Under the pieces are notes generated by a model, which saw only the letters and a list, made by a program, of their open reading frames with translations, had not been told where the DNA came from and did not search any database. Shown piece by piece: positions 30,452 through 52,394 of a stretch of 64,000 nucleotides of DNA. The position numbers and the translations under genes are program-made. Position 1 is the first letter of the stretch, and every line of letters starts with the position of its first letter. Where the stretch lies: assembly GCA_964584475.1 (NCBI GenBank), contig CAZPAF010000005.1, positions 13,998-77,997 on the forward strand. The letters run 5' to 3'. The stretch is from an uncultured Lachnospiraceae bacterium (lineage in GTDB: Bacteria; Bacillota; Clostridia; TANB77; CAG-508).

Positions 30452-31324
30452 ATGATAGATTTACATATGCATACTGTATATTCAGATGGGGATAAAACAG
30501 TAGAAGAATTATTAAAATTATGCGAGGAGCAAAAGTTAGAATATATTTCAATAACAGATCATGATAATTGTATGCAATATAAAGATGAAGCATTAACAAA
30601 AGGACTGTTTTCAGGAAAAATAATAAAAGGTTCTGAATTACATGCGGTACATAACAATAGAAAATATGAGATTTTAGCTTATGGTATTGATACAGATATA
30701 TTAACTGCCTGGTATCAAAAATACTATTCAGACGAACAATTAATTAAAAATCAAGAAATTGCAGCTAAAATGTTAATAGATATTTTTAATAGATTAGGAA
30801 TAAAATATAATCTTGATAATGTAATATGGCCGACTAAACCAACAGAATTTGTAGAAAGAAGAATGTATAAAGATGCGTTTTCTTATCCGGAAAATAAAGA
30901 AATTTTTGGAGAATATAACGATTCAAATTTTGGATTGTTTTTTAGAAAAGAAATAACAAATCCAGAAAGTCCATTCTTTATGCCACCATTTGGGATTCCA
31001 GAACATAAAGAGGTTGTTGAAGCAATTCATAATGCTGGTGGAAAAGCATTTTTAGCTCATCCTTTTGAATATAAATTCGAAGATACAATTGGATTTATTG
31101 ATGAAATTAGAAAAAATGCTGAACTTGATGGAATTGAAGTATATCATCCATCTTCTGTAGATGATGATAAAAAAGATATTCTATATGAATATGCAAGAAA
31201 AAATAATCTATATATTTCAGGAGGAAGTGATTTTCATGGGACTCCAAAACCAGATATAAAAGTTGGAGTAGGACGAGGAAATATTAATATCCCAAAAGAA
31301 ATTATAGAAGAATGGATTGATTAA
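30452..31324 (+). CDS. PHP-domain metal-dependent phosphoesterase
   Basis: MIDLHMHTVYSDGD, ISITDHDN, FLAHPFEY, GIEVYHP, SGGSDFHG. Confidence 0.8.
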   Translation: MIDLHMHTVYSDGDKTVEELLKLCEEQKLEYISITDHDNCMQYKDEALTKGLFSGKIIKGSELHAVHNNRKYEILAYGIDTDILTAWYQKYYSDEQLIKNQEIAAKMLIDIFNRLGIKYNLDNVIWPTKPTEFVERRMYKDAFSYPENKEIFGEYNDSNFGLFFRKEITNPESPFFMPPFGIPEHKEVVEAIHNAGGKAFLAHPFEYKFEDTIGFIDEIRKNAELDGIEVYHPSSVDDDKKDILYEYARKNNLYISGGSDFHGTPKPDIKVGVGRGNINIPKEIIEEWID

Positions 31325-31386
31325 TATTATTTTAATAATATTAACATATAATTTATAAATAAATTTACAAAAAAGGAGAAAACAAA

Positions 31387-31959
31387 ATGGAAAAAGAAAT
31401 TATTATAGCTTCTGGAAATAAAGGAAAAATAAGAGAAGCAGAAGAAATTTTAGAAGGATATAAAATTATTCCAATAAAAGATATAGGAATAGATATTGAT
31501 GTTGAAGAGGATAAAGATACTTTTGAAGAAAATGCAATAAAAAAAGCCCAAGAAATATCAAAACAATTAAATGGAAAAATGTGTATATCAGATGACTCTG
31601 GAATTGAAATTGAATTTTTAGATGGATTTCCAGGAGTATTTACAAAAAGATGGCATGCAGGAACTGATAGAGAAAGAAATTTAGAAATAATAAAAAAATT
31701 AAATGGAGTAGAAAAAGCAAAAAGAAAAATTACTTTTACAACAGCAATTGCTTTAGCTGAAGGAGATACAGTATATACTGGAGTTGCAAGTATTGATGGA
31801 TATGTTGCTGAAAATGTAAGAGGTGATAATGGATTTGGTTTTGATGAAATATTCGAACTTGAAAATGGAAAAACACTTGCAGAATTAACGGCAGAAGAAA
31901 AAAATGAAATTAGTGCTAGAAAAAAAGCATTAGAAATTATTAAAAATAAATTAAAATAA
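31387..31959 (+). CDS. rdgB: Non-canonical purine NTP pyrophosphatase (RdgB/HAM1, dITP/XTP)
   Basis: IIIASGNKGKIREA, EEDKDTFEENAIKKA, ISDDSGIEIEFLDGFPGVFTKRW, GFGFDEIF. Confidence 0.9.
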   Translation: MEKEIIIASGNKGKIREAEEILEGYKIIPIKDIGIDIDVEEDKDTFEENAIKKAQEISKQLNGKMCISDDSGIEIEFLDGFPGVFTKRWHAGTDRERNLEIIKKLNGVEKAKRKITFTTAIALAEGDTVYTGVASIDGYVAENVRGDNGFGFDEIFELENGKTLAELTAEEKNEISARKKALEIIKNKLK

Positions 31960-31985
31960 TAAAAATTATTTTAGAAAGAGTAGAA

Positions 31986-32492
31986 ATGAAACCACTAAGA
32001 AAAGCTGTTAAATGTCTATTAATTGAAGATAGAAAAATAGTTATAACAAAATATCTTAAAGGGAATAAAGCTGGATATTATGATATTCCAGGTGGAAAAA
32101 TAGAAGCTGGTGAAACTTCTGAAGATGCAGCTATAAGAGAAATGAAAGAAGAAACAGGAATTAGTGTTTCAAACTTAACCCCAAAAGGTTTTTTTGAAGT
32201 AGAATATCCAGATAGAAAATTTACTTTTGATGTTTTTATTGCGAAAGAATATCAAGGAAATCTGCAAAATTTTGAAGAAAACACATCTGAATGGATTAAT
32301 ATAGCTGAACTTTTAAATAAAGAAAAAATATTATCCAATGTATTGATTTTAGATGAAACAATTAATAAAGCATTGTATGATGAAACTTTAAATTTCCATA
32401 TTAAAGTAAAAGTTGATGAAGAAGAAAATATTTTAAATTTTGAATATAAATCAGCTAGTTCGAAAAAAGTTATAAAGCTGGTTGCGTTTTAA
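31986..32492 (+). CDS. Nudix hydrolase (MutT-like)
   Basis: Nudix box GGKIEAGETSEDAAIREMKEETG. The reading frame stops 24 nt after an A6 run (32463-32468). Confidence 0.85.
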   Translation: MKPLRKAVKCLLIEDRKIVITKYLKGNKAGYYDIPGGKIEAGETSEDAAIREMKEETGISVSNLTPKGFFEVEYPDRKFTFDVFIAKEYQGNLQNFEENTSEWINIAELLNKEKILSNVLILDETINKALYDETLNFHIKVKVDEEENILNFEYKSASSKKVIKLVAF

Positions 32493-32881
32493 TAGATAAA
32501 ACAAATAAAAAGGTTGGATTAGTTTTTAGAAAAGAACAAGGTGATTATTCTTTTGCAAAAGGTCATTTAGAAGAAAATGAAACTGTAATTGAATGTGCTA
32601 AAAGAGAAACTGAAGAAGAAACAGGAAGAGAAATTGAAATTGTTTCTGATAAGGAATTAGGAATATTGAGTTATATAACTAAAAAAGGTGAGAATGTAGA
32701 TACATATTTATACTTAGCAATTGATAAAGGCGTTTTAGATAAAAATATACCAGAAAATTTAAAAGAAAAATTAGAATGGATAGATTTTGACAAAGTTGAA
32801 GAATTTTTAACTCATGATGATTTAAAATACTTTTGGAATGCTAATAAAAATTGCATATTAACTTATTTAGAAAAGGAGTAA
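32459..32881 (+). pseudogene. Second Nudix domain ORF with no usable start of its own; probably the 3' half of a frameshifted di-Nudix gene (31986-32881)
   Basis: The frame is open from 32459 and reads (F)EKSYKAGCVLIDKTNKKVGLVFRKEQGDYSFAKGHLEENETVIECAKRETEEETG (complete Nudix box). There is no ATG/GTG and no SD before the box. The track finds only a TTG at 32666, downstream of the box. A -1 shift at the A6 run joins it to the upstream ORF. Confidence 0.6.
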
Positions 32882-32884
32882 ATA

Positions 32885-33586
32885 ATGTCTAAGAATTTAG
32901 TTTTAATTGGTGGTGGAGAAATAAAGGGATGGAATTTCGATACCAAAGATTCAAACCAAGATTTATATCAAACAGAAAATATAGACAAAACAATTGTAGA
33001 ACTATCAGGTAAAGAAAATCCTAAAATGCTTTTTATAGGAACTGCATCTCGTGAAAGAGAAGGGTATTTTGAAGCAATAAAAAATATTTACTCTGACTTA
33101 GGTTGCACAGTTGATTGTTTAAAAATGACAGATGATAATATAAAAGAAAAAGTATTAAATTCAGACATTATTTACATTGGTGGCGGAAATACTAGATTTA
33201 TGCTATCAGAATGGGAAAAAGTAAACTTAAAAGAATACTTGTTAGAAGCTTATAATAAAGGAATTGTTGTTTCAGGATTTAGTGCGGGAGCTTATTGTTG
33301 GTTCAAATATAATTATGAAATGCTTGAAGGATTTGGATTAATAAAGGCTATAAATTGTGTTCATTACGATGATAAAACAGAAGAAAAAATTAACGAATTC
33401 TATAGCAATATAAAATCAAAGAATCTTCCTGGAATTGCACTAGATAATGGAGTAGCAATGAAATATTCTGAAAATTCATTTAAGATTATAAAAAGTATAA
33501 AGAATGCAAAAGCATTTAAAATTTCATACCTTGATGGCAAATTCATAAAAGAAGAATTATTTGAGAATAATATATATACTTTATAA
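32885..33586 (+). CDS. Peptidase S51 (PepE)/type-1 glutamine-amidotransferase-like protein
   Basis: IIYIGGGNTRFML and GFSAGAYC (Ser nucleophile context), about 230 aa. Confidence 0.7.
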   Translation: MSKNLVLIGGGEIKGWNFDTKDSNQDLYQTENIDKTIVELSGKENPKMLFIGTASREREGYFEAIKNIYSDLGCTVDCLKMTDDNIKEKVLNSDIIYIGGGNTRFMLSEWEKVNLKEYLLEAYNKGIVVSGFSAGAYCWFKYNYEMLEGFGLIKAINCVHYDDKTEEKINEFYSNIKSKNLPGIALDNGVAMKYSENSFKIIKSIKNAKAFKISYLDGKFIKEELFENNIYTL

Positions 33587-33636
33587 ATTTAGATACTTAG
33601 ATTTATTAATATATTGTAGAAATGAGTTGGTAGTAA

Positions 33637-34296
33637 ATGAAAAACAAAACAGATTTTGAATTATTACAAATATTATGGGACTATATGCATGTTAATCATT
33701 CACTAGAAAATGCAGATGCAATACTAGTTTTGGGCTGTTCAGATTTATCTGTTGTAGATGTAGGTGTTGATGTATATAAAAAAGGATATGCAGATAAAAT
33801 GATTTTTTCTGGAGGTCTTGGAAAAGATACCAGTAAAATTTGGAATGAACCTGAAGCAAATAAATTTGCAAAACTTGCAATAGAAAAAGGAATTCCAAAA
33901 GAAAATATTTTAATAGAAAATAAATCAACAAATACAGGTGAGAATTTTAAATTTACTAAAAAATTAATTGAAGAAAATAATTTAGGAATAAAGAAATTTA
34001 TAATTGTTCATAAACCATATGATGAAAAAAGAGCTTATGCAGCTTTTAAAAATTGGATGCCAGAATATGAGGCTGTTGTTACATCAATGGATATTTCGTG
34101 CGAAGAATATAACAAAATGGCTATAGAAAATAACTTGCCAAATTGGAAAGAACTTATGGTAGGGGATGTTCAACGAATGAAAGTATTTGCTAAAAAAGGA
34201 TGGCAAGTTGAAGTAGATATGCCAGATGAAATTTGGAATACTTATGAAGAATTAGTAAAAAGAGGTTATGACAAATATGTATTTCATGAAAAATAG
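33637..34296 (+). CDS. DUF218 (YdcF/ElyC/SanA-like) protein
   Basis: DAILVLGCSD, KMIFSGGLGK, NKSTNTGENF, IIVHKPYDEKRA. Confidence 0.7.
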   Translation: MKNKTDFELLQILWDYMHVNHSLENADAILVLGCSDLSVVDVGVDVYKKGYADKMIFSGGLGKDTSKIWNEPEANKFAKLAIEKGIPKENILIENKSTNTGENFKFTKKLIEENNLGIKKFIIVHKPYDEKRAYAAFKNWMPEYEAVVTSMDISCEEYNKMAIENNLPNWKELMVGDVQRMKVFAKKGWQVEVDMPDEIWNTYEELVKRGYDKYVFHEK

Positions 34297-34326
34297 ATAT
34301 AAAAACTAAAGAAAGAGGAAAATAAA

Positions 34327-34866
34327 ATGTCAGTAAAAATAACTTATTTTGTACATGGCACAACTTATGATAATTTAGAACATAGATCTACTGGATGGCT
34401 TCCGGGAGAATTATCACCAAAAGGAATACAGCAAGCAAAAGCATTAAAAGAACAAGTAAATATGAAAGATATAGATATTGTATTTTGTTCAGATTTAAAA
34501 AGAGCTATTGATTCAGCAGAAATAGTTTTTGGTGGAGAAAAGATTATTTATCAAGATAAAAGATTAAGAGAATGTAATTATGGTCTTTTTGATGGAAAAG
34601 ATTCTAAATTTGCTGTATATGAAAATCATATACAAGAAAGATTTCCAGAAGGAGAATCAATGATTGATGTTGAAGAAAGAATTAAAAGTTTTTGTGGGTA
34701 TTTACTAGAAAAATATAATGGAAAACATATAGCAATAGTTGCTCATAAAGCACCACAACTTGCAATTCAAGTATTAACTCAAGGAAAAACATGGGAGCAA
34801 GCAATTGCAGAAGACTGGAGAAAAACAAAAGCTTGGCAGCCTGGATGGGATTATACTATTGATTAG
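34327..34866 (+). CDS. Histidine-phosphatase (phosphoglycerate-mutase-like) family protein with VHG in place of the canonical RHG
   Basis: ITYFVHGTTYDN, CSDLKRAIDSAEIVF, FPEGESMIDVEERI, IVAHKAPQ. Confidence 0.75.
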   Translation: MSVKITYFVHGTTYDNLEHRSTGWLPGELSPKGIQQAKALKEQVNMKDIDIVFCSDLKRAIDSAEIVFGGEKIIYQDKRLRECNYGLFDGKDSKFAVYENHIQERFPEGESMIDVEERIKSFCGYLLEKYNGKHIAIVAHKAPQLAIQVLTQGKTWEQAIAEDWRKTKAWQPGWDYTID

Positions 34867-34882
34867 AAATTAAGGAGTAAAA

Positions 34883-35605
34883 ATGTTAGAAAATAAAAAA
34901 GTTATAATTTTTGATTTAGATGGAACTCTAATTGACTCAATTGGTGTTTGGAGTAGTATAGATATAGAAGTTATAAAAACTATTGGAGATGGAACAATAG
35001 ATGATGTTGATATAGGAAAACAAAGAGATGAAAAATTAAAAGAGTTTTATCTAGCTGAAGATATGTATTTAGAATACTGTGGTTTTTTAGGAGAAAAATA
35101 TAAATCAAATTTAACTAAACAAGAAATAAAAACATTAAGATACCAAATTGCAGATAAATATTTAAGAGAAGTTATAGATTATAAACCAAATGCAGAAAAA
35201 GTATTACATTACTTAAAAGAAAATGGTTTTATATTGGTTTTAGCTACTACAACAAATGATCATACAATTGTAACTTATACTAATGATAATGAAAATATAA
35301 AATCTAAAGCTCCTTTTGATGAAATGTTTACATTAATATATTCAAAAGGTGCTGTAAAAAATTTAAAACCAGATCCAGAAATTCATTATAAAATTTTAAA
35401 AGAACTAGATGTAAAAAAAGAAGAATGTTTAATTGTAGAAGATTCTTTAATTGGTGTGGAAGCTGCCCAAAATAGTGGTATTGATTTTGTAGTAATGTAT
35501 GATAAATTTTCTGATGGTAATAGAGAAGAAATTAATAAATTATCAAAAATAAATTTCAATAATTTTGATGAGATGTTAGAGAGAATAAAAGAAGAATTAG
35601 AATAA
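34883..35605 (+). CDS. HAD-superfamily hydrolase (subfamily IA-like)
   Basis: Motif I IIFDLDGTLIDS, LATTTN, KPDPEIH, and VEDSLIGVEAAQNSG. Confidence 0.85.
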   Translation: MLENKKVIIFDLDGTLIDSIGVWSSIDIEVIKTIGDGTIDDVDIGKQRDEKLKEFYLAEDMYLEYCGFLGEKYKSNLTKQEIKTLRYQIADKYLREVIDYKPNAEKVLHYLKENGFILVLATTTNDHTIVTYTNDNENIKSKAPFDEMFTLIYSKGAVKNLKPDPEIHYKILKELDVKKEECLIVEDSLIGVEAAQNSGIDFVVMYDKFSDGNREEINKLSKINFNNFDEMLERIKEELE

Positions 35606-39471: not shown

Positions 39472-40527
39472 ATGGTAATAAAAAGCGCAGATTTTCCGAT
39501 GCAATATGTTGATGAAAAAAAGTTTAAATATATGTATATTGATGATGAAAGTTTTAAAGGTTATCTTGGACAAATACATATAATAAAAGCAAATCAACCA
39601 CCAAAAGAACTTGGAGAAGATTACATAGAAAGAGCAAATAGTGGATGTAAATGGCTTGAATTTTATCCAGAAAATTCAAATGTTGCTATGACAGTTGCTT
39701 ATAATCATGAAAATAAAATATTGAATTGGTATTTTGATATTATAAATAAAATAGGAATTGAAAATGATAATCCATATTTTGAAGATTTATATTTAGATGT
39801 TACACTTACTCCTCAAAATAAAATGGAATTATTAGATGAAGAAGAGTTAGAAGAAGCACTAAAGACAGGTGATGTAAGTAAAGAACAATATGATATGGCT
39901 TATAAAACAGCAAAAGAATTAATGAAAAAAATTGATGGAAAACAAGAATCACTTATAAAATTCTCTAATAAATATTTTGATAAAATTAATTTAATTGGAC
40001 AAATAAAAGATGAAGACATTGGAGAAAAATCAAAACCGGTAGAAAAATATAGACAAAGATTTGGAGCAAGAGGAATTGTAATAAGAGAAGATGGAAAAAT
40101 TGCTGTATTTAATAAAGCTCTAAAAAATGAATTTAAACTTCCAGGTGGAGGAATAGATGAAGGAGAAGAAACAGCAGAAGCATTTAAAAGAGAAGTGTTT
40201 GAAGAAACAGGATGTAAAATAGAAATAATAGATTTTTTAGGAACTATTGAAGAATTAAAAACTCAAGATGAGTTTAAACAAATGTCCTATGTTTATGTTG
40301 GAAAAGTTATAGAAGATACTAAAGCATTACATGTAACTGAGCAAGAAGAAAAAGAAGGTGCTAGACTTTTGTGGGAAACTCCTGAAAAAGCTTTAGAATT
40401 AATAAAATATTGCTATGATAAATTATTACCATCACCATGCGAAGCTGATTTATCTTCTGTATATCATACAAAATTTATTGTAAGAAGAGATAGCAAAATA
40501 TTAGAAACTTATTTAAATAGCAAATAA
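39472..40527 (+). CDS. Fusion protein: DUF402 (Ntdp-like nucleoside tri/diphosphatase) domain plus Nudix hydrolase domain
   Basis: N-terminal half NWYFDIINKIG...YFEDLYLDVTL is DUF402-like. The C-terminal half carries the Nudix box GGGIDEGEETAEAFKREVFEETG. Confidence 0.7.
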   Translation: MVIKSADFPMQYVDEKKFKYMYIDDESFKGYLGQIHIIKANQPPKELGEDYIERANSGCKWLEFYPENSNVAMTVAYNHENKILNWYFDIINKIGIENDNPYFEDLYLDVTLTPQNKMELLDEEELEEALKTGDVSKEQYDMAYKTAKELMKKIDGKQESLIKFSNKYFDKINLIGQIKDEDIGEKSKPVEKYRQRFGARGIVIREDGKIAVFNKALKNEFKLPGGGIDEGEETAEAFKREVFEETGCKIEIIDFLGTIEELKTQDEFKQMSYVYVGKVIEDTKALHVTEQEEKEGARLLWETPEKALELIKYCYDKLLPSPCEADLSSVYHTKFIVRRDSKILETYLNSK

Positions 40528-43404: not shown

Positions 43405-44019
43405 GTGAAAGTATTATTTGCAACAACAAATCCAGCAAAAGTTGGAAAATATAAAGAAGCTTTAAAAGAAAAAAATATAGAATTAATAACATTAAAAGAC
43501 TTAGACTTAAATTTACATGTTGAAGAAACAGGAAAAAACTGTATGGAAAATGCTTTAATAAAAGCAAAAGCTTATTATGAAGCAACAGGGATAATTTCAA
43601 TTGGAATGGATAACTCTTTATTTATTGAAGAACTACCAGAAGAAAAACAACCAGGAACACATGTAAGAAGAGTGGCAGGAAAAGAACTTTCTGATGAAGA
43701 AATGATTGAATATTATACAGGCTTAGTAAAAGAATATGGTGGAAAACTTACTGCTAAATGGGTATATGGAATGGTTGTATATGGAGAACATGGAGCTAAA
43801 GAGTATACATGGAGCAAAAGTCATTTTTATTTTGTAGATACAGCATCAAATAAAAGAAATCCTGGATATCCTTTAGATTCAATTGCGATAATTCCAGAAT
43901 TTAATAAATATTTAGTAGAATTAACAGATGAAGAAAAACATAGCAATAAAAGAGAAGATGGAAATAAAGATGATATGGTAGTTGATTTTATTGCAAAATC
44001 TGCTTTTAATGAAAATTAA
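43405..44019 (+). CDS. Second HAM1/RdgB-like non-canonical NTP pyrophosphatase paralog (divergent)
   Basis: GTG start 7 nt after AAGGAG. VLFATTNPAKVGKYKEAL, VEETGKNCMENALIKAKAYY, SIGMDNSLFIEEL...QPGTHVRR. Confidence 0.7.
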   Translation: MKVLFATTNPAKVGKYKEALKEKNIELITLKDLDLNLHVEETGKNCMENALIKAKAYYEATGIISIGMDNSLFIEELPEEKQPGTHVRRVAGKELSDEEMIEYYTGLVKEYGGKLTAKWVYGMVVYGEHGAKEYTWSKSHFYFVDTASNKRNPGYPLDSIAIIPEFNKYLVELTDEEKHSNKREDGNKDDMVVDFIAKSAFNEN

Positions 44020-45515: not shown

Positions 45516-46265
45516 ATGATACAAAATGAAAAAGAAGAAGGAGAGTACTTAATAAACATAGAAAATAGTTTAGTTCATGATGAACTAATAGATATAAATG
45601 ATCAAAATTTTGGAAAGATGATGTTTTTATATAATTCAGCTTTAAAAGAAATAAAAACGAAAATAGAAATCTTACAAGAAGAACTTAAAATATTTTCAGA
45701 ATATGAACCAATAGAATATATTACCACGAGAATAAAAAAGCCAGAAACAATTTTAGAAAAATTAAAAAGAAAAAATTTAGCATTAACATATGGGAATATG
45801 TTTCAAGAAATAAATGATATCGCTGGAATTAGATTGGTTTGTAATTTCAAAAAAGATGTATATAAATTAGTTGAAATTATAGAAAATTTCCAAGATATTA
45901 GAATATTAAATAAAAAAGATTATATGAAAAAGCCTAAGAAAAGTGGTTATATGAGTTACCACTTAATAGTAGAAGTACCAGTAAACTTCTCTTCAGGAAT
46001 AATGTATGTAAAAGTTGAAATGCAACTTCGTACCTTAGCAATGGATTTCTGGGCTAGCTTAGAACATAAGTTAAAATATAAGAATTCTAAGATCACAAAA
46101 ACAGAATCAAATAATTTAATCAAATACGCAAAAGTAATAAATAATATTGATGAAAGTATGCTTACTATTTCAAATAGATTAGAAGAGGAAGAAAAACAAA
46201 ACTTTTTAATAGAAGCGGCTGACAGTAAAGATAAAACTAAGAAGAAAATATTTTTTAAATTATAA
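45516..46265 (+). CDS. Small alarmone synthetase (RelP/RelQ-type GTP pyrophosphokinase, RelA_SpoT synthetase domain only)
   Basis: Likely start ATG 45516 (MIQNEKEE). RIKKPETILEKLKRK, DIAGIRLVC, SGYMSYHLIVEVPV, VEMQLRTLAMDFWASLEHKLKYK. Confidence 0.85.
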   Translation: MIQNEKEEGEYLINIENSLVHDELIDINDQNFGKMMFLYNSALKEIKTKIEILQEELKIFSEYEPIEYITTRIKKPETILEKLKRKNLALTYGNMFQEINDIAGIRLVCNFKKDVYKLVEIIENFQDIRILNKKDYMKKPKKSGYMSYHLIVEVPVNFSSGIMYVKVEMQLRTLAMDFWASLEHKLKYKNSKITKTESNNLIKYAKVINNIDESMLTISNRLEEEEKQNFLIEAADSKDKTKKKIFFKL

Positions 46266-46273
46266 TTTAAAGA

Positions 46274-46305
46274 GGAGATAATTCATTGATAATTATCTCC
46301 TTTTA
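46274..46305 (+). terminator. Intrinsic terminator
   Basis: GGAGATAATT (46274-46283) pairs with AATTATCTCC (46291-46300), followed by TTTT. Confidence 0.7.
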
Positions 46306-46347
46306 TGATATCGTATTTATATAAAATTTGCCAAAGGAGAATGGAAT

Positions 46348-47124
46348 ATGAAAAAAGCATTTAAAGTCTTGATATTTATAGTAATATTAGTGCTTATAGT
46401 TTTTGTAGGAATATATTTTAAAAATAATTCCTTTGGTAAAGAAAAATTGAATATAGGAAAAGAAAAATTAAGATTAGTAGTTATTGGAATATGGGATTTT
46501 CAAGAAATATTAGCAGTAGATGAGAATGGAAATTTATTGCGAGTACAATTAAAAGAATTAAAACTTTGGAATGAGATGGATAAATTCGAAAGAGGGCAAG
46601 AAATAGAAATTTATTATGATGGAGTTATTACAGAAACATATCCAGGTAAAATTACTAATGTATCAAGTTATAAAATATTAAAAGAAAAGTCAGATATTGA
46701 AATACCAGAAGAAGTAAAAAAACGTTATGACAATAGTACAGCAAATGTTATGGTACATGTTCGAAATATTTCAAATGAGAAACTAGAATTTAGAATTTTA
46801 GATACTAATGAAATTTCTTATAAATATGATTTTGATTACAGTCTATCCAAGAAAAATGAAGAGAAAAACATCTTTGAAAAAATTGAACCAACTGTAAATA
46901 TTACTATGGATGAAGTGATAGAAATAGTAGATTCTACTCCAGGACATTTTGATATGGAAGGTAAAATTGATTGGACTGATATATATGGAATGTTAAACCC
47001 GGGAGAATATCAATTTATTCTAAAAAACAAAGAAAGAGAGATTCATTTTGAAATTATAGAATTTAATTTTGTTGTTGAAGAAAACGGAAAGGCAATATGC
47101 AATCCGCCAGAATTTGGTTGGTAA
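46348..47124 (+). CDS. Signal-anchored secreted protein, paralog A (N-terminal DUF3221-like domain plus an Ig-like C-terminal domain; tentative)
   Basis: N-terminal TM. QEIEIYYDGVITETYPGKITNV...YKILKEKSDIEIPEEV, C-terminal IDWTDIYGMLNPGEYQF...ENGKAICNPPEFGW. Clear paralogy to the next gene. Confidence 0.7.
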   Translation: MKKAFKVLIFIVILVLIVFVGIYFKNNSFGKEKLNIGKEKLRLVVIGIWDFQEILAVDENGNLLRVQLKELKLWNEMDKFERGQEIEIYYDGVITETYPGKITNVSSYKILKEKSDIEIPEEVKKRYDNSTANVMVHVRNISNEKLEFRILDTNEISYKYDFDYSLSKKNEEKNIFEKIEPTVNITMDEVIEIVDSTPGHFDMEGKIDWTDIYGMLNPGEYQFILKNKEREIHFEIIEFNFVVEENGKAICNPPEFGW

Positions 47125-47147
47125 AATAGTAAAGGAGAAAATGTAAT

Positions 47148-48002
47148 ATGAAGAAAAATGTAAAAATTTTTATAACTTTATTTTTTATACTTGTTTTAGT
47201 AATATGTGGAATTCAAATTTATAAACGAGCAGGATACTATACAATGAAATTAATTGTTGTAAATGTAGAAGGAAAAAGATTAGAAACAATGGATTATAAT
47301 GAAAAATTATTTTCAGTTTCAATAAAAGATGGAGATACAAGTGATTTTAAACAAGGACAAGAAGTTTTGATTTATTATGATGGAGTTGTTGCTACTACTT
47401 ATCCAGGACAAATTACAGCTGATAATGTTGAAATTTTAAAAGAAAAATCAAATAAAGAAATCCCAGTTGAAGTATTAAGATATTGGAATTTTTCCTCAAA
47501 AAACATTTCAGCTAAAATAGAAGAAATTTCAAGCAAAGGAATAACATTTAAAATAACAGATTTAAATGAAGTTCCTTTAGATTATGGAAATGCTTATGAA
47601 TATTCTGTTGTTAAGAAAAATATAGAAAATGAAGAATATAATCAAAATTTAGAATTTGATTATGATGCATATACTCCTCCTGTGACAACAGATACTTATT
47701 CTGCAACGTCTTCATATAGTCCAGATCCTGATAGATTAAAGAAAGTTTGGGAAGAACCTGAATTAATTGGTAATGAATCAGAGAAAAATTGTAATTGGGA
47801 TAGTATTCTAGATGATGGAACAATTTTTGTTGGAAAAAGTGATTGGACAAATTTATATGGAGAACTTGAAGAGGGAGAATACCAATTTGAAGCTTATCGA
47901 AAACCAACAAAAGAAGACTCATTTTTTCAATGTGTTTTAGTGGATTTTACGATTGATGAAAACGGAAATATTACTTATGAAGAACCAGAGTTTAGTTTTT
48001 AA
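47148..48002 (+). CDS. Signal-anchored secreted protein, paralog B
   Basis: QEVLIYYDGVVATTYPGQITADNVEILKEKSNKEIPVEV, SDWTNLYGELEEGEYQF...ENGNITYEEPEFSF. Confidence 0.7.
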   Translation: MKKNVKIFITLFFILVLVICGIQIYKRAGYYTMKLIVVNVEGKRLETMDYNEKLFSVSIKDGDTSDFKQGQEVLIYYDGVVATTYPGQITADNVEILKEKSNKEIPVEVLRYWNFSSKNISAKIEEISSKGITFKITDLNEVPLDYGNAYEYSVVKKNIENEEYNQNLEFDYDAYTPPVTTDTYSATSSYSPDPDRLKKVWEEPELIGNESEKNCNWDSILDDGTIFVGKSDWTNLYGELEEGEYQFEAYRKPTKEDSFFQCVLVDFTIDENGNITYEEPEFSF

Positions 48003-48041
48003 ATTTTATAAAAGGAGTAAAGATATAAATAAATATCTTAA

Positions 48042-48836
48042 GTGAATAAAATGATAGACATAGTAAAAGCAGAAAAAGCATTTAAAGAATATTTAAAAGA
48101 ATATGATACTGAAAGTGAAAAAGTTGCTTTAAAAGTAACTCATACTTATGGTGTTGTAAAAGCAAGTGAATACTTAGCAAAAGAATTAAATTTGAGTGAG
48201 GAAGATACAAATCTTTCAAGATTAATTGCACTTCTTCATGATATTGGTCGTTTTGAACAATCAAAAGGAAATAGTGACGTGTATGATAATGCGGATAGCT
48301 TATTGTTTGATCATGCAGTATATGGTTGTAAAGTATTGTTTGAAGACAATATGATAAGAAGATTTATAGAAGATGATAAATATGACAACATTATTTATAA
48401 AGCAATCTTAAATCATAATAGAATTTCTATTGAAGAGGGACTTTCTGAAAAAGAATTGTTACACGCTAAATTAATTAGAGATAATGATAAAACTGATAAT
48501 TTTAGAGTAAAGCTAACAGAAAGTTTTAAAGTATTGCTTGGAACTGATGATATAAATTTTATAGAAAACGAAAAAATATCTGATGATATATACGAAACTT
48601 TTATGAATAAATCACTTATAAAATATGGTGATGCGCAAACTTGTTTAGATAGATGGAGTGCGTATATTGCGTTCATATTTGATTATAATTTTGATGAATC
48701 ATTAAGATATTTAAAAGAAAATGATTTAATAAATAAATGCTTTAATAGAATTAATTATAAAAATCCAGAAACAATTGCGAAAATTTCTAATATGAGAAAT
48801 TTAGCGATTAATTTTGTGGAAGAAAAATGTAAATAA
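48042..48836 (+). CDS. HD-domain metal-dependent phosphohydrolase
   Basis: VTHTYGVV...ALLHDIGRFEQ...FDHAVYG...ILNHNR...LIRDNDKTDNF. The start is uncertain (GTG 48042 or ATG 48051). Confidence 0.75.
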   Translation: MNKMIDIVKAEKAFKEYLKEYDTESEKVALKVTHTYGVVKASEYLAKELNLSEEDTNLSRLIALLHDIGRFEQSKGNSDVYDNADSLLFDHAVYGCKVLFEDNMIRRFIEDDKYDNIIYKAILNHNRISIEEGLSEKELLHAKLIRDNDKTDNFRVKLTESFKVLLGTDDINFIENEKISDDIYETFMNKSLIKYGDAQTCLDRWSAYIAFIFDYNFDESLRYLKENDLINKCFNRINYKNPETIAKISNMRNLAINFVEEKCK

Positions 48837-48841
48837 AAATG

Positions 48842-48872
48842 GAGCTACTTTGCGCATAAAAGTAGCTCTTTT
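48842..48872 (+). terminator. Intrinsic terminator
   Basis: GAGCTACTT (48842-48850) pairs with AAGTAGCTC (48860-48868), followed by TTTT. Confidence 0.7.
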
Positions 48873-48978: not shown

Positions 48979-49007
48979 TTGAAATGAAGCCTGTTTTCTG
49001 CTATAAT
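48979..49007 (+). promoter_or_regulatory. Sigma-A-type promoter with extended -10 (TTGAAA-17 nt-TGcTATAAT) for the deaminase fusion gene
   Basis: TTGAAA 48979-48984 and TATAAT 49002-49007, with TG at 48999-49000. Confidence 0.5.
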
Positions 49008-49058
49008 ATAGAATTAACAAGTTGAAAAAATAAAAGGAAAAGGAGAGTGTTTATAATA

Positions 49059-51575
49059 ATGAAAAAATTAACATATGTTAATAAGTTCTACATGGATAAA
49101 GAAAAAGATGTTGTAGTTGAATTATATAGAGGTAAAGTACCTGACGAACTTACATATATTATAAGAACTCCTAACCATAAAAGTGGAAATTTAATTTCAA
49201 ATTTAGCAAGAATTTCTGGATTAGAAGAACAAAGAGATCCAGAAAATGGTTTAAAAATAATTAAAGGTGTTATTCCGGCTTCAATAAATGCAGATAATGA
49301 AGATGTATATATTTTTAGATTAGGACCAATCAAAGTTGCAAATATATATGAAAACAGAATTGAAGTAAAAGCAAAAATACCTGCGATTTCAAAAACTTTA
49401 ATGTCTCAAACAAAAGACTATAAATTTGATATCAAGAAAACAATTGTAAAATCTTATATTTTTAAAAAATCAAAATTTAAAACAGATTTACATACACATA
49501 TGAATGCAAACTTAACTCCAGATGTATTAATTGCACTTGGAATTGTTCATCAAGCAAAATATCCTTTATACTATATTAAAAAATTAAATTTAAAAATGAC
49601 TAAAAAACAAGAAAAAGCTGTAATGGCATCTAGAAAATTAGTTGAAAAAGAATATGAAAACAGTGGTTTAGAAGGAAAATATTTAACAAGAAAAATTGAT
49701 GATAATACTTTTATAAATTTTGCAGATTTCATATTAAACAACTTAGATAATGCAGAAGAAAATATTTCAAAAATAAGAACAAGTTTAGCTCTTTTAAAAG
49801 ATGGTCAATCGGTATTTACAAACTTAGAGAAAGTTTATATTTACAGATACGTATTTTGTAAAGCTAAAGTTTCGGATGAAAAAATAAAATTAAGCATGAA
49901 AAAAATAGAAGCTATTCCAGAAAAGGATATAGTAGCTTATGTTAAAAAAATATTAGATGATAAAAAAGAAGGAAGTCCATATAAAAATAATTCTTTAAGA
50001 CAAGATAAATATTTATGGATTGCAAGAGAATATCAAAAACAACATATTTCATATACAGAAATTGCTGATACAGATTTAACAAAACCAGGAGAACCAGCAA
50101 TCAAACTATTAGAAGAAGTACACGAATTATTTCCAAAATTAGAAGCAGAAACAGGAGTTTCAATTAGACTTTTAGTAGGATTAAGAAGAGTTCCTCTTAC
50201 AATAATAAGAGATCAAAAAACAGCAAGTAATTATTTAAGAGAAAACTTAGATGTATTAAAAGCAGTTGCCAAAAGTCCTTATGTAGTAGGTAGTGATTTT
50301 ATTGGTGAAGAAATAAATGATATAGCTGATTTAAAACCAGTTATTAATGAATTAGTTCAATATGCGGTAACAGAAGACGAAGGATTTACAGTTAGAATTC
50401 ATGCTGGTGAAAATGATTGCTTAAGAGATAATGTTGCAAAATCAATAGAATGTATAAAAGAAGCATTAAAACCAGGACAAAAAATGCCAAGATTTAGATT
50501 AGGTCATGGATTATATACAGCTGATTTAAATACTAAAGAAGGTAAAACTTTAATGAAAGAAATGGTTAAAACAAAAGCTGTTTTAGAATTTCAATTAACA
50601 TCAAATGTTAGATTAAACAATTTAACAGATATCCAAAGACACCCATTAAAACAATACTTAGAAGCAGGTGTTAGATGTGTTCAAGGTACAGATGGATGTG
50701 GATTCTATGGAAGTGATACAATTGATGAACAATTAGCTCTTCATAATTTAATTGGATTAGATGATGAAGATTTTGCTAAAATGAGAAAAGTAGAAGATGA
50801 AATAATCGAAGATAGAAAAAAATACTTTGAAGAAAAATCAAAAAGATTTGAAGAATTTTTAGCAGGAAGAACATTAAGAGAAGCAATATTAGAATTAGAA
50901 GAAAAGAATTTAGAAGCAAGCAAAGATTCAACAGTTGAAATGAGAATTAGCAACAAATTAGATTCAGAATCTAAATTAAAAGGAAAAATTAAAATGTTTC
51001 CAGAAAATAAAATTCCAATTGTTATTGCAGGTGGGAGCTTTAATGCAAAAAATAGAGAAACAGTTCTTGATCAAAATGGAATAACAGCAATAAGAAGATT
51101 AGTAGAAAATTTAGATGATGAAAAAGTATATTTTGTTGTAGGACATAAAATGACAGGATATGAAAAGGCTGTTTTAGATGCAGCAAAAGAATTAAACAAA
51201 AACTTTGAAATAAATGCCATTGTTCCAAAAGAAGTTTCTGCTGAAGAAGTTGATAACATCTTAAAAGAAAATATAAATGGAATTAGAATTTCTACAGAAA
51301 GAGAAGAAATGGGAATTTACAAAAGCTTTAACTATGAAATATTTGAAAGAAGAAACTCTATAGTTGTAGCTTTTGATGGAAATTCACCAGTTTCAAATTT
51401 AGTTCAAGAAGCAAAAAATGGTAAAGGAAAAGCTAAAATATATGTAAATTCTGAAGTTGAAGCTTTAAAAGATAAAGCAAATTCACTTGGAGGATATGTA
51501 AAAGAATTTAAAGTAAAAGATGATTTAGCAAATGCAATATTTACAGATTATCCAGAGATAAAAATAAATGAATAA
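49059..51575 (+). CDS. Three-module protein: unknown ~150-aa N-domain, adenosine/AMP-deaminase-family domain, coiled-coil linker, and a C-terminal SLOG/LOG/YpsA-like Rossmannoid domain
   Basis: Likely start ATG 49059 (MKKLTYVN). Deaminase motifs appear in the canonical order: DLHTHMNANL, VVGSDFIGEE, RIHAGEN, RLGHGLY, LEFQLTSNV, CVQGTDGCGFY. C-terminus: IPIVIAGGSF...VYFVVGHKMTGYEKAVLDAAKE...NAIVPKE...SIVVAFDGNSPVSNLVQEA. Confidence 0.85.
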   Translation: MKKLTYVNKFYMDKEKDVVVELYRGKVPDELTYIIRTPNHKSGNLISNLARISGLEEQRDPENGLKIIKGVIPASINADNEDVYIFRLGPIKVANIYENRIEVKAKIPAISKTLMSQTKDYKFDIKKTIVKSYIFKKSKFKTDLHTHMNANLTPDVLIALGIVHQAKYPLYYIKKLNLKMTKKQEKAVMASRKLVEKEYENSGLEGKYLTRKIDDNTFINFADFILNNLDNAEENISKIRTSLALLKDGQSVFTNLEKVYIYRYVFCKAKVSDEKIKLSMKKIEAIPEKDIVAYVKKILDDKKEGSPYKNNSLRQDKYLWIAREYQKQHISYTEIADTDLTKPGEPAIKLLEEVHELFPKLEAETGVSIRLLVGLRRVPLTIIRDQKTASNYLRENLDVLKAVAKSPYVVGSDFIGEEINDIADLKPVINELVQYAVTEDEGFTVRIHAGENDCLRDNVAKSIECIKEALKPGQKMPRFRLGHGLYTADLNTKEGKTLMKEMVKTKAVLEFQLTSNVRLNNLTDIQRHPLKQYLEAGVRCVQGTDGCGFYGSDTIDEQLALHNLIGLDDEDFAKMRKVEDEIIEDRKKYFEEKSKRFEEFLAGRTLREAILELEEKNLEASKDSTVEMRISNKLDSESKLKGKIKMFPENKIPIVIAGGSFNAKNRETVLDQNGITAIRRLVENLDDEKVYFVVGHKMTGYEKAVLDAAKELNKNFEINAIVPKEVSAEEVDNILKENINGIRISTEREEMGIYKSFNYEIFERRNSIVVAFDGNSPVSNLVQEAKNGKGKAKIYVNSEVEALKDKANSLGGYVKEFKVKDDLANAIFTDYPEIKINE

Positions 51576-51591
51576 TTTAACAATTATATTT

Positions 51592-51621
51592 AGAAAGTAG
51601 CTTTTGCTACTTTCTTTTTTG
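51592..51621 (+). terminator. Intrinsic terminator
   Basis: AGAAAGTAGC (51592-51601) pairs with GCTACTTTCT (51606-51615), followed by T5. Confidence 0.75.
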
Positions 51622-51719
51622 TAAAATTTTGTCACACAAATGAGATATTGTTTTTCCTTAAAAACATTGAAATATTTTTTTTCTATTGATAAAATGTCAA
51701 AGAAGAGGTACATAAGATT

Positions 51720-52394
51720 ATGAGTTTTGTAGAAAATATAGAAATTTCAAATAATAATGAGAAAAATATAACTGAATATGATAATGCTTCAAATATTGCT
51801 ATGAACAGAGCTTTGTACATAAAAGTGCAAAACATTATTAAAGATGCAAAAATAAAAAAGTATGTAAAAGAAAGTTCTGAGATTTCTTCAGAAGGTATAA
51901 GTTTTTGGGGAAGTTTTACTGGAAAAAATTCTTTGCAATTAGAAAGAATGAGAAATGTAAAACTTAGAATTGAGCTTTTGCAATCTCAAAAAATAGAAAT
52001 AAAAGAAGAATACAAAGAAACTGAAATGATGGCAGATTTATATGTTTGCGCTATGTCTGAACTTGGTGGAAAATTTACAAATGAAATGCAAAATGTATAT
52101 AATCAAGTTAAAGAGTCTTGCAAAGGAGAAGTAACAGATGAAAAAATACAAGATATAGCATTAAGAAAAGCTGCTACTACTAATGTACAATCTTATTTAC
52201 CAATAATTCATCAAGAAAAAGCAAAAGGAATTTTTGGAGATATTAAAACTCAAATTGAATTTTATAAAATTGAAAATAGAAAATTAGAAAATCAAATAAT
52301 ACTAGAAAGAGGAAAAAGTCAATTTGGTACATTTGATTATGTTGGAAAAAATGCTGGAATAATAATTCCTACAAACATACAAACCAAACATTAA
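51720..52394 (+). CDS. Hypothetical protein (224 aa, helical and charged)
   Basis: Uninterrupted ORF in host composition. No motif recognised. Confidence 0.6.
   Translation: MSFVENIEISNNNEKNITEYDNASNIAMNRALYIKVQNIIKDAKIKKYVKESSEISSEGISFWGSFTGKNSLQLERMRNVKLRIELLQSQKIEIKEEYKETEMMADLYVCAMSELGGKFTNEMQNVYNQVKESCKGEVTDEKIQDIALRKAATTNVQSYLPIIHQEKAKGIFGDIKTQIEFYKIENRKLENQIILERGKSQFGTFDYVGKNAGIIIPTNIQTKH

Follow-up and report, generated by a model that had tools for sequence, protein, structure and literature searches.

What does an adenosine-deaminase barrel do when it is carried in one polypeptide with a SLOG-fold domain? The question is raised by a gene on the + strand (P0001, positions 49059-51575, stop codon included) of a 64,000-nucleotide stretch of DNA from an uncultured Lachnospiraceae bacterium, the whole of which is here called the window. 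Its 838-amino-acid product consists of an N-terminal domain, the deaminase barrel and the SLOG-fold domain. An initial annotation, made from the letters of the DNA, had left two readings side by side, a ligand-gated defence or stress effector and a regulated purine-salvage enzyme. On balance we favour the view that the product is a SLOG-regulated adenine-nucleotide deaminase, which feeds the inosine monophosphate/guanosine monophosphate (IMP/GMP) branch in purine auxotrophs.

The deaminase core was analyzed at the level of families and of single residues. Residues 322-577 match the Pfam family A_deaminase (PF00962) with 65.9 bits for a cut-off of 27 (E-value 4e-18), all 45 distant homologs compared (20-29% identity) match it as well, and the adenosine/AMP-deaminase TIM barrel as a whole can be placed at residues 141-585 (49479-50813, + strand). 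H145, H147, H448, E451, H483 and D545 do not vary among 18 close homologs and are kept in 43 to 45 of the 45 distant ones. The HAGE, GHG and SN motifs, like the Asp that binds the metal, align between the barrel and the adenosine deaminase (ADA) of Plasmodium. Barrel strand 1 is followed by a conserved insert of about 145 amino acids (residues 176-320); as the HxH motif of this strand lies at residues 145-147, the insert therefore parts strand 1 from the remaining barrel. The motifs quoted in the initial annotation were all located (DLHTHMN, VVGSDFIGEE, RIHAGEN, RLGHGLY, FQLTSNV, QGTDGCGFY, and towards the C-terminus IVIAGGSF, VVGHKMTGYEK and VAFDGNSPVSNLVQEA), and its reading of a complete deaminase set in canonical order holds: judged from the metal and catalytic residues, all of which are kept, the metal-dependent ADA-type active site is intact. 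The Add equivalog models of NCBIfam (TIGR01430, NF0068xx) gave 47-49 bits, and their cut-offs of 216-459 were not reached. Searched against the PDB, the family profile had bacterial and Plasmodium adenosine deaminases as its closest solved structures (E 1e-18), followed by a mollusc ADGF-type AMP deaminase (2e-9) and by Cad1 (4e-5, compared to 0.1 for the single protein); RdrB and classical AMP deaminase (AMPD) structures were absent among these matches.

Two further positions bear on the substrate. The equivalent of mouse ADA Asp19 is N149 in the window protein and Ser, Ala, Thr or Asn over 45 diverse homologs, and the equivalent of Asp296 is G546, a Gly in 41 of the 45; Asp is found at neither position. 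In canonical ADA, Asp19 binds the ribose hydroxyls and Asp296 the N7 of adenosine, and the ATP-specific TaqCad1 departs from the canonical enzyme at the same two positions (G264 and N549); adenosine, AMP and ADP are not substrates of TaqCad1, and its deamination of ATP is abolished when Asp is put back at both positions (PMC12669630). The absence of both Asp as in Cad1, together with the ITPase and Nudt16-like genes described below, favours a phosphorylated substrate, and the enzyme probably acts on an adenine nucleotide, not on adenosine. Of the "(d)ATP/adenosine deaminase" initially proposed, the adenosine part is disfavoured by the absence of the two canonical Asp.

The C-terminal module (residues 651-825; 51009-51533, + strand) was characterized by its fold. 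Structures were predicted with AlphaFold2 on the two end domains separately, and the C-terminal 207 residues, with a 15-sequence alignment, gave a model with a predicted local distance difference test (pLDDT) score of 86.9. In a Foldseek search of the PDB the best 32 matches of this model, and nearly all of the top 50, belong to the SLOG superfamily (E 5e-5 to 5e-3, probability 1.0, template-modelling score 0.50-0.62), the top ones being LOG phosphoribohydrolases, a YgdH/PpnN structure, MoCo carrier, the N-terminal domains of TRPM2/3/4/8, and DprA. The fold search alone succeeded: a sequence search of the C-domain against the PDB gave no match, the window protein matched no Pfam SLOG family (LSDAT_prok, Lysine_decarbox, YAcAr and others), and LSDAT_prok was matched below threshold in 10 of the 45 distant homologs (best E 4e-5). 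The module is a SLOG fold in its predicted structure, as the initial annotation had suspected; the architecture of sensor plus deaminase holds on these models, and the gating logic attached to it is plausible.

Within the clade of the window protein the SLOG motifs (AGGSFN, GHKxxGYEK, YKSFNYEIFERR and AFDGNSPVSNLVQEAKNGKG) are invariant. The consensus of the superfamily reads KxPIxIxGxS ... DPxKxYFVTGGxxxGxEK ... GG-x5-D-x-I, where the clade has D773 in place of the family G and N780 in place of the family D. Neither replacement varies within the clade, and this points to a site that has been altered and is under selection, not to one in decay. The LOG motif PGGxGTxxE, mapped by eye and not by residue-level structural superposition, reads FDGNSPVSN here, with N780 at the position of the catalytic Glu and Asp at this position in the wider family. 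As the motif is not kept, a binding or allosteric role of the SLOG domain is preferred over a catalytic one, with low certainty.

The N-terminal domain (residues 1-140; 49059-49478, + strand) is specific to the clade, its hidden Markov model matching only relatives of at least 56% identity. The initial annotation had described it as beta-rich and of unknown kind, and both terms suit the AlphaFold2 model, which is beta-rich (pLDDT about 80-87 for residues 1-100, with residues 109-142 disordered when the domain is modelled alone) and for which Foldseek returned nothing at E<0.1 from the PDB and BFVD, and no CARF or Rossmann match. That this domain could be a fused copy of the PGDYG partner of distant homologs was considered and rejected (hhalign probability 0.1%). 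Mean pairwise identity is 0.67-0.75 for the three domains and 0.54 for the charged linker (residues 586-650; 50814-51008, + strand), which is less conserved than any other long segment. Invariant columns amount to 41 of 140 in the N-domain, 7 of 65 in the linker and 70 of 175 in the SLOG domain. By these alignments the SLOG-fold C-domain and the N-domain are both under purifying selection.

The occurrence of the gene was then compared, over the 25 genomes of the genus, with that of PurD, a marker of de novo purine synthesis. The gene is present in 19 genomes, at 50-100% identity; PurD is present in all six genomes lacking the gene and in a single one of the 19 carrying it. In a tree of IMP dehydrogenase (IMPDH) the gene-lacking genomes appear as one clade of four and a separate lineage, G022, which represents at least two independent events and not six. 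In the window's genome no PurD, PurA, second PF00962 protein (canonical Add) or Ade-type adenine deaminase was found, and IMPDH is present; the deaminase is therefore the only recognisable route of this genome from adenine to inosine compounds. The 18 genomes of the genus with the gene and without PurD (18/19) probably belong to purine-auxotrophic lineages. The idea that the gene replaces a canonical add was rejected, since it applies to one genome only (G022) and most gene-lacking genomes are also devoid of add.

To describe the surroundings of the gene, neighbouring open reading frames were clustered over 97 loci (the window, 16 genome loci and 80 metagenome loci, the last sampling the close clade only), reduced to 52 neighbourhood groups by dereplication at 85% identity. 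Each neighbour family is confined to 11 or fewer of the 52 groups, which indicates that the window clade has neither a partner gene nor a defence island; the commoner neighbours are housekeeping genes (TadA-like deaminase, HtrA, M23 peptidase, ABC ATPase/transporter, Der, PlsY). Purine genes are recurrent. Three arrangements, whose other flanks differ, have purA immediately next to the deaminase gene and in the same orientation, 103-138 bp away: it lies upstream in loci L016 and L023 and downstream in L091. The L023 deaminase homolog is only about 27% identical to those of L016 and L091, and the chance of adjacency to a single-copy gene is about 0.1% per independent locus. Ham1 genes are found in several configurations: in genome G021 a Peptidase_S51 gene ends 1 nt before the start of the deaminase gene and Ham1 begins 18 nt past its stop, the order Ham1-HD-deaminase is consecutive in G024, and a Ham1-HD pair is located 3 kb from the gene in G007. 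The guaB gene lies 1.8 kb away in G003, and a Nudt16-like Nudix gene is directly downstream of one distant homolog (probably from Bacteroidota, judged by its neighbours). No cas genes were found among the neighbours of the window gene and the 96 related loci, no TIR gene among the Pfam-annotated neighbours and no conserved partner family; in the window clade no cyclase gene was seen next to the deaminase gene, and no mobile-element genes.

The window itself contains a divergent Ham1/ITPase paralog (Pfam Ham1p_like; 43405-44019, + strand) about 5 kb upstream of the deaminase gene. This paralog, "group C", is present in 12 of the 19 genomes with the deaminase gene and in none of the six without it (Fisher p=0.0097), and is a possible functional associate of the deaminase. 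The Ham1 genes of the genus fall into five paralog groups, for genomes of 1.3-2.2 Mb, and up to four are found per genome of 1.6-1.9 Mb.

A scheme can be proposed from these elements. The barrel would deaminate the adenine ring of a nucleotide, turning ATP or dATP into inosine triphosphate (ITP) or dITP, or AMP into IMP. The SLOG domain, perhaps with the N-domain, would bind a cellular nucleotide, for example an alarmone or a nucleotide of guanine or adenine, and in its ligand-bound state would gate or tune the barrel allosterically, in the manner of CARF in Cad1 or of the allosteric sites of eukaryotic AMP deaminase. The enzyme would thereby supply the IMP pool from salvaged adenine nucleotides, with IMPDH leading onward to GMP; should the product be ITP, Ham1-type ITPases or Nudix enzymes would turn it into IMP, and where purA is present the two enzymes would permit A-to-I-to-A cycling. 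The near confinement of the gene to genomes without de novo synthesis and its ITP-cleaning and IMP-using neighbours make regulated salvage likelier than an anti-phage role. The salvage alternative of the initial annotation is thus the one that fits better, through the PurD anticorrelation and the linkage with purA, Ham1, Nudt16-like and guaB genes, and its defence reading is unsupported for the clade, where no defence island, partner, mobile or viral context was found and where the gene is anticorrelated with de novo synthesis. A bolder version, which we regard as tentative and rather doubtful, would have an immune-type ligand-gated ATP deaminase domesticated as core metabolism: ATP/dATP would be converted to ITP/dITP, then to IMP via the expanded Ham1 set, as the sole adenine-to-guanine nucleotide route of these purine-auxotrophic gut Clostridia, throttled by the SLOG domain according to nucleotide or alarmone state; such an ATP-to-ITP-to-IMP shunt would be new.

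Several observations weigh against a SLOG-regulated nucleotide deaminase of auxotrophs. The ADA domain is nearest in sequence to genuine adenosine deaminases, not to Cad1 or AMP deaminases, and the substrate and ligand are deduced for every member of the family. The replacements D773 and N780 depart from the superfamily consensus, hence ligand binding could be altered or lost. Behind the PurD anticorrelation stand some 2-3 independent lineages; G021, which carries PurD plus the deaminase gene, does not conform to it, and both are also carried by G135 and G372, two genomes of 3.3-3.4 Mb from another family. Most of the order is without both the gene and PurD, so that auxotrophy in itself does not demand the gene. 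Finally, the linkage with Ham1 and HD is partly inherited synteny within one genus.

Other explanations have to be weighed against the same data. A single-gene anti-phage or stress effector, whose SLOG domain would sense a nucleotide signal of infection and trigger ATP/dATP deamination and growth arrest as in Cad1 or RADAR RdrB, is unlikely here. It would agree with the loss of both canonical Asp, shared with the ATP-deaminating Cad1, with a weak PADLOC match to CARF_ADA (E 4e-8, spanning model positions 260-555, the ADA part only), with the role of SLOG as signal sensor of Thoeris ThsA (bioRxiv 10.64898/2025.12.03.692087) and with a very patchy distribution, since among genomes sampled outside the genus the gene turned up in 4 of 400 from the class and in 2 of 401 from the phylum. 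Distant homologs are moreover located near Mob_Pre/TnpV, a restriction-modification pair, and Fic/HTH or PGDYG genes. In the window clade, however, there is neither a partner nor an adjacent TIR, cyclase or CRISPR gene, defence-island or mobile gene, or viral contig; the gene is kept in 19 of the 25 genomes of the genus, its absence follows the presence of de novo purine synthesis, and its neighbours are purA, guaB and Ham1, not immune genes. The survey of contexts, defence islands versus purine operons, gives a divided answer: housekeeping and recurrent purine genes argue against defence in the clade, and the mobile operons of distant relatives make it possible for these.

An ordinary constitutive adenosine/deoxyadenosine deaminase of nucleoside salvage, whose extra domains would serve oligomerisation or stability only, is more doubtful still. 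The nearest relatives with structures are indeed bacterial and Plasmodium adenosine deaminases, and in the genus the gene never coexists with a canonical add, G022, the sole genome with add, being without it. This explanation has to face the absence, throughout the superfamily, of both Asp that hold adenosine, scores far under the Add equivalog cut-offs, some 390 extra residues in three conserved regions under selection (N-domain, insert and SLOG), and neighbours (Ham1, Nudt16-like, purA, guaB) that act on nucleotides, not nucleosides. Least probable of all appears an enzyme with two activities: its SLOG domain would be a nucleotide N-glycosidase of LOG/PpnN type freeing adenine or ribose-5-phosphate from AMP, and its barrel would deaminate the released base or nucleoside. 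The replacement of PGGxGTxxE by FDGNSPVSN, with Asn at the catalytic Glu position in the clade and Asp in the family, speaks against it, as do the lack of a match to Pfam Lysine_decarbox (LOG) and the weak matches of relatives, which are only to the non-catalytic LSDAT sensor clade; these outweigh for us the structural matches, the best of which are LOG phosphoribohydrolases and the YgdH (PpnN-family) structure, the 70 invariant columns among the 175 of the SLOG domain, and the one distant homolog with a nucleoside 2-deoxyribosyltransferase-like domain. We therefore retain a nucleotide deaminase of regulated salvage as the preferred reading.

The family is large. More than 5,398 homologs were detected, and the best 120 are 70-97% identical to the window protein and nearly all full-length. 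Clustering at 50% identity gave 779 representatives, among them relatives of 800-1000 amino acids (about 30-35% identity) that have barrel and SLOG domain in common but differ in their N-termini. Its members are often met in uncultured Clostridia from the guts of humans and ruminants, and none of the viral contigs searched carries the gene. Literature searches on SLOG combined with adenosine or ATP deaminase, on PGDYG and on bacterial AMP deaminase gave no description of an ADA-SLOG family. The three-part enzyme is unstudied and no member has been characterised.

Some distant relatives present a quite different organization. In L114:1-4063, L115:3-4019 and L170:1-4090, homologs about 33-35% identical belong to a common three-gene operon, with a gene of about 300 amino acids upstream and a gene for a lysine-rich protein of about 157 amino acids that overlaps or closely follows the ADA-SLOG gene. 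Its flanks are nearly devoid of Pfam matches, L114 having Mob_Pre and TnpV, and the operon is a candidate mobile multi-gene system. A PGDYG-family protein (PF14083) adjoins three different distant homologs (L028:3403-4089, L029:7082-7750 and L030:2563-3051); one homolog adjoins a restriction-modification pair and a KilA-N gene, others are seen beside Fic and HTH genes, and one bears the extra nucleoside 2-deoxyribosyltransferase-like domain. The mobile-element operons mean that the superfamily may include immune multi-gene systems, and a defence-like role is possible for these relatives at about 30% identity. In the window clade, with its own N-domain, the gene is stand-alone and chromosomal.

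The transcription and translation signals of the gene were also considered. The reading frame is free of stops over its 838 codons, a GGAGAG ribosome-binding site precedes the ATG at 49059, where the starts of homologs align, and an alternative GTG at 49047 falls within this site. A sigma-70-type promoter (48979-49007, + strand; TTGAAA-17 nt-TATAAT with an extended -10 TG) matches 11 of 12 positions and is the top-scoring site between 48700 and 51800. It sits between the start codon and the intrinsic terminator of the upstream HD gene (48841-48869, + strand; 11-bp stem, then a T run), which separates the HD-gene transcript from the deaminase gene. A second terminator (51592-51615, + strand; 10-bp stem, then TTTTTTG) follows the deaminase gene; three intrinsic terminators were found for 0.5 expected. 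With its own promoter and flanking terminators the gene is therefore monocistronic, and the promoter and terminator of the initial annotation are both recovered. In two metatranscriptome runs from gut, the gene is covered only by contigs of low depth, from relatives 90-95% identical, which is weak evidence of transcription.

The immediate upstream neighbour is an HD/HDIG phosphohydrolase gene (48042-48836, + strand; Pfam HD, NCBIfam HDIG), for which no solved relative was found. It adjoins the deaminase gene in 4 of the 52 groups and is nearby in a fifth; its orthologs were recognised in G024 and G007, and it is a possible functional associate of the deaminase. The upstream block 45516-48836 comprises a RelQ/YjbM-type small alarmone synthetase, two tandem DUF3221-like signal-anchored paralogs and the HDIG phosphohydrolase; HD and synthetase genes accompany the deaminase gene in 5 of the 52 groups, all inside the genus. 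The initial annotation had seen both genes and added that their position may be coincidental. Both are real; the HD gene is not wholly coincidental, because it recurs in 5 of the 52 groups spanning orthologs of 56-100% identity, and both are lineage-specific, not universal.

Further upstream, between 30.4 and 44 kb of the window, lies a dense house-cleaning and phosphohydrolase cluster with PHP, canonical Ham1, two tandem Nudix, Peptidase_S51, DUF218, histidine phosphatase, HAD and a DUF402-Nudix fusion (30452-35605 and 39472-40527), followed by a second Ham1 (43405-44019); the S51 ortholog and Ham1 that flank the gene in G021 hint at an older joint cluster. The window's genome (G000) has four Ham1/ITPase-family genes, at 31387-31959 and 43405-44019 of the window and on contigs C45 and C16, and the Ham1 set of the genus amounts to an unusually expanded complement of pyrophosphatases for non-canonical purine NTPs. 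A canonical Ham1 is split into two frames in five genomes (G008:C16:28581-29130, G009:C5:126537-127092, G010:C7:62295-62844, G013:C4:75419-75968 and G004:C29:6227-6818). Four of these are group A with the same break, and that of G004 is group B with a break at about the same alignment point; a shared frameshift, a homopolymer error or recoding could be involved. Frameshifted Ham1 genes are seen in genomes without the deaminase gene, but they were rejected as a sign of co-decay, as four copies are in paralog group A and one of the genomes, G009, carries the deaminase gene; the split shows no correlation with that gene. Two other neighbours are recurrent. A 171-amino-acid deaminase of the CDA fold is directly upstream in 9 of the 52 groups (L011:2612-3127 and 17 other loci), its best NCBIfam match being TadA with 80.6 bits, below the cut-off of 150. 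Directly downstream, an open reading frame of 224 amino acids (51720-52394) with its own promoter-like site (51667-51695) is present in 5 of the 52 groups, is 64-71% identical in the close relatives checked and has no Pfam match.

To our knowledge, the interconversion of adenine and inosine in nucleotides is not generally regarded as a bacterial activity, and deamination of ATP has been known only from immunity, where it is toxic (Cad1, RADAR). A family of more than 5,000 sequences may run nucleotide deamination as regulated housekeeping. If this is true, a missing reaction would be added to the purine-salvage maps of reduced-genome gut bacteria, the up to four Ham1 ITPase paralogs per genome would be accounted for, and the control of a non-immune enzyme by a SLOG domain could be studied in a tractable case. 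The presence of metabolic and mobile-element-borne relatives in one superfamily also bears on the exchange of roles between immune effectors and metabolic enzymes. The new elements brought here are the PurD anticorrelation, the linkage with purA, Ham1, Nudt16-like and guaB genes and the missing-Asp parallel with Cad1.

The window protein can finally be compared with known systems. Cad1/CAAD is the CARF-fused adenosine deaminase of type III CRISPR (PDB 9c67, 9ubl and 9ebt; PMC11645235, PMC12669630). Like the window protein it joins a sensor domain and an ADA-family barrel in one polypeptide and has the full metal and catalytic set without the equivalents of Asp19 and Asp296, and both the conversion of ATP to ITP and allosteric gating by a Rossmann-like nucleotide sensor have their precedent in it. 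The sensor of Cad1 is, however, an N-terminal CARF in a type III CRISPR context, whereas that of the window protein is a C-terminal SLOG, accompanied by an extra N-domain, in a chromosomal and metabolic setting without CRISPR. Canonical Add/ADA (PF00962; 6n9m, 6n91 and 3ewc) provides the best barrel matches and has HxH, HAGE, GHG, SN and the metal Asp in common with it, but is about 330 amino acids long, compared to 838 for the window protein with its 145-amino-acid insert, N- and C-domains and N149/G546, which scores 4-9-fold below the Add equivalog cut-offs of NCBIfam. RADAR RdrB is an ADA-fold enzyme that converts ATP/dATP to ITP/dITP. It differs by the lack of a SLOG domain; PADLOC gave no RdrB match, and no RdrA AAA+ ATPase partner occurs in any neighbourhood examined. 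Eukaryotic AMPD, which is regulated through allosteric sites, is of similar size (about 800 amino acids), belongs to the same superfamily, has regulatory extensions and parallels the role proposed here from adenine nucleotide to IMP, and the repeated adjacency of purA recalls the AMPD-ADSS purine nucleotide cycle; it differs in that no specific sequence relationship was detected, its regulatory domains are others, and AMP as a substrate is hypothetical for the window protein. ThsA, the MHR1/2 (LSDAT) region of TRPM, LOG and PpnN/YgdH have the same fold as the modelled C-domain. ThsA and LOG differ from the window protein, which has no TIR partner, does not keep the LOG catalytic motif and has a deaminase as fusion partner. 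Thoeris ThsA is nevertheless an earlier case of a fused enzyme switched by a SLOG domain upon binding of a nucleotide-derived ligand, and PpnN is a LOG-family purine enzyme controlled by (p)ppGpp.

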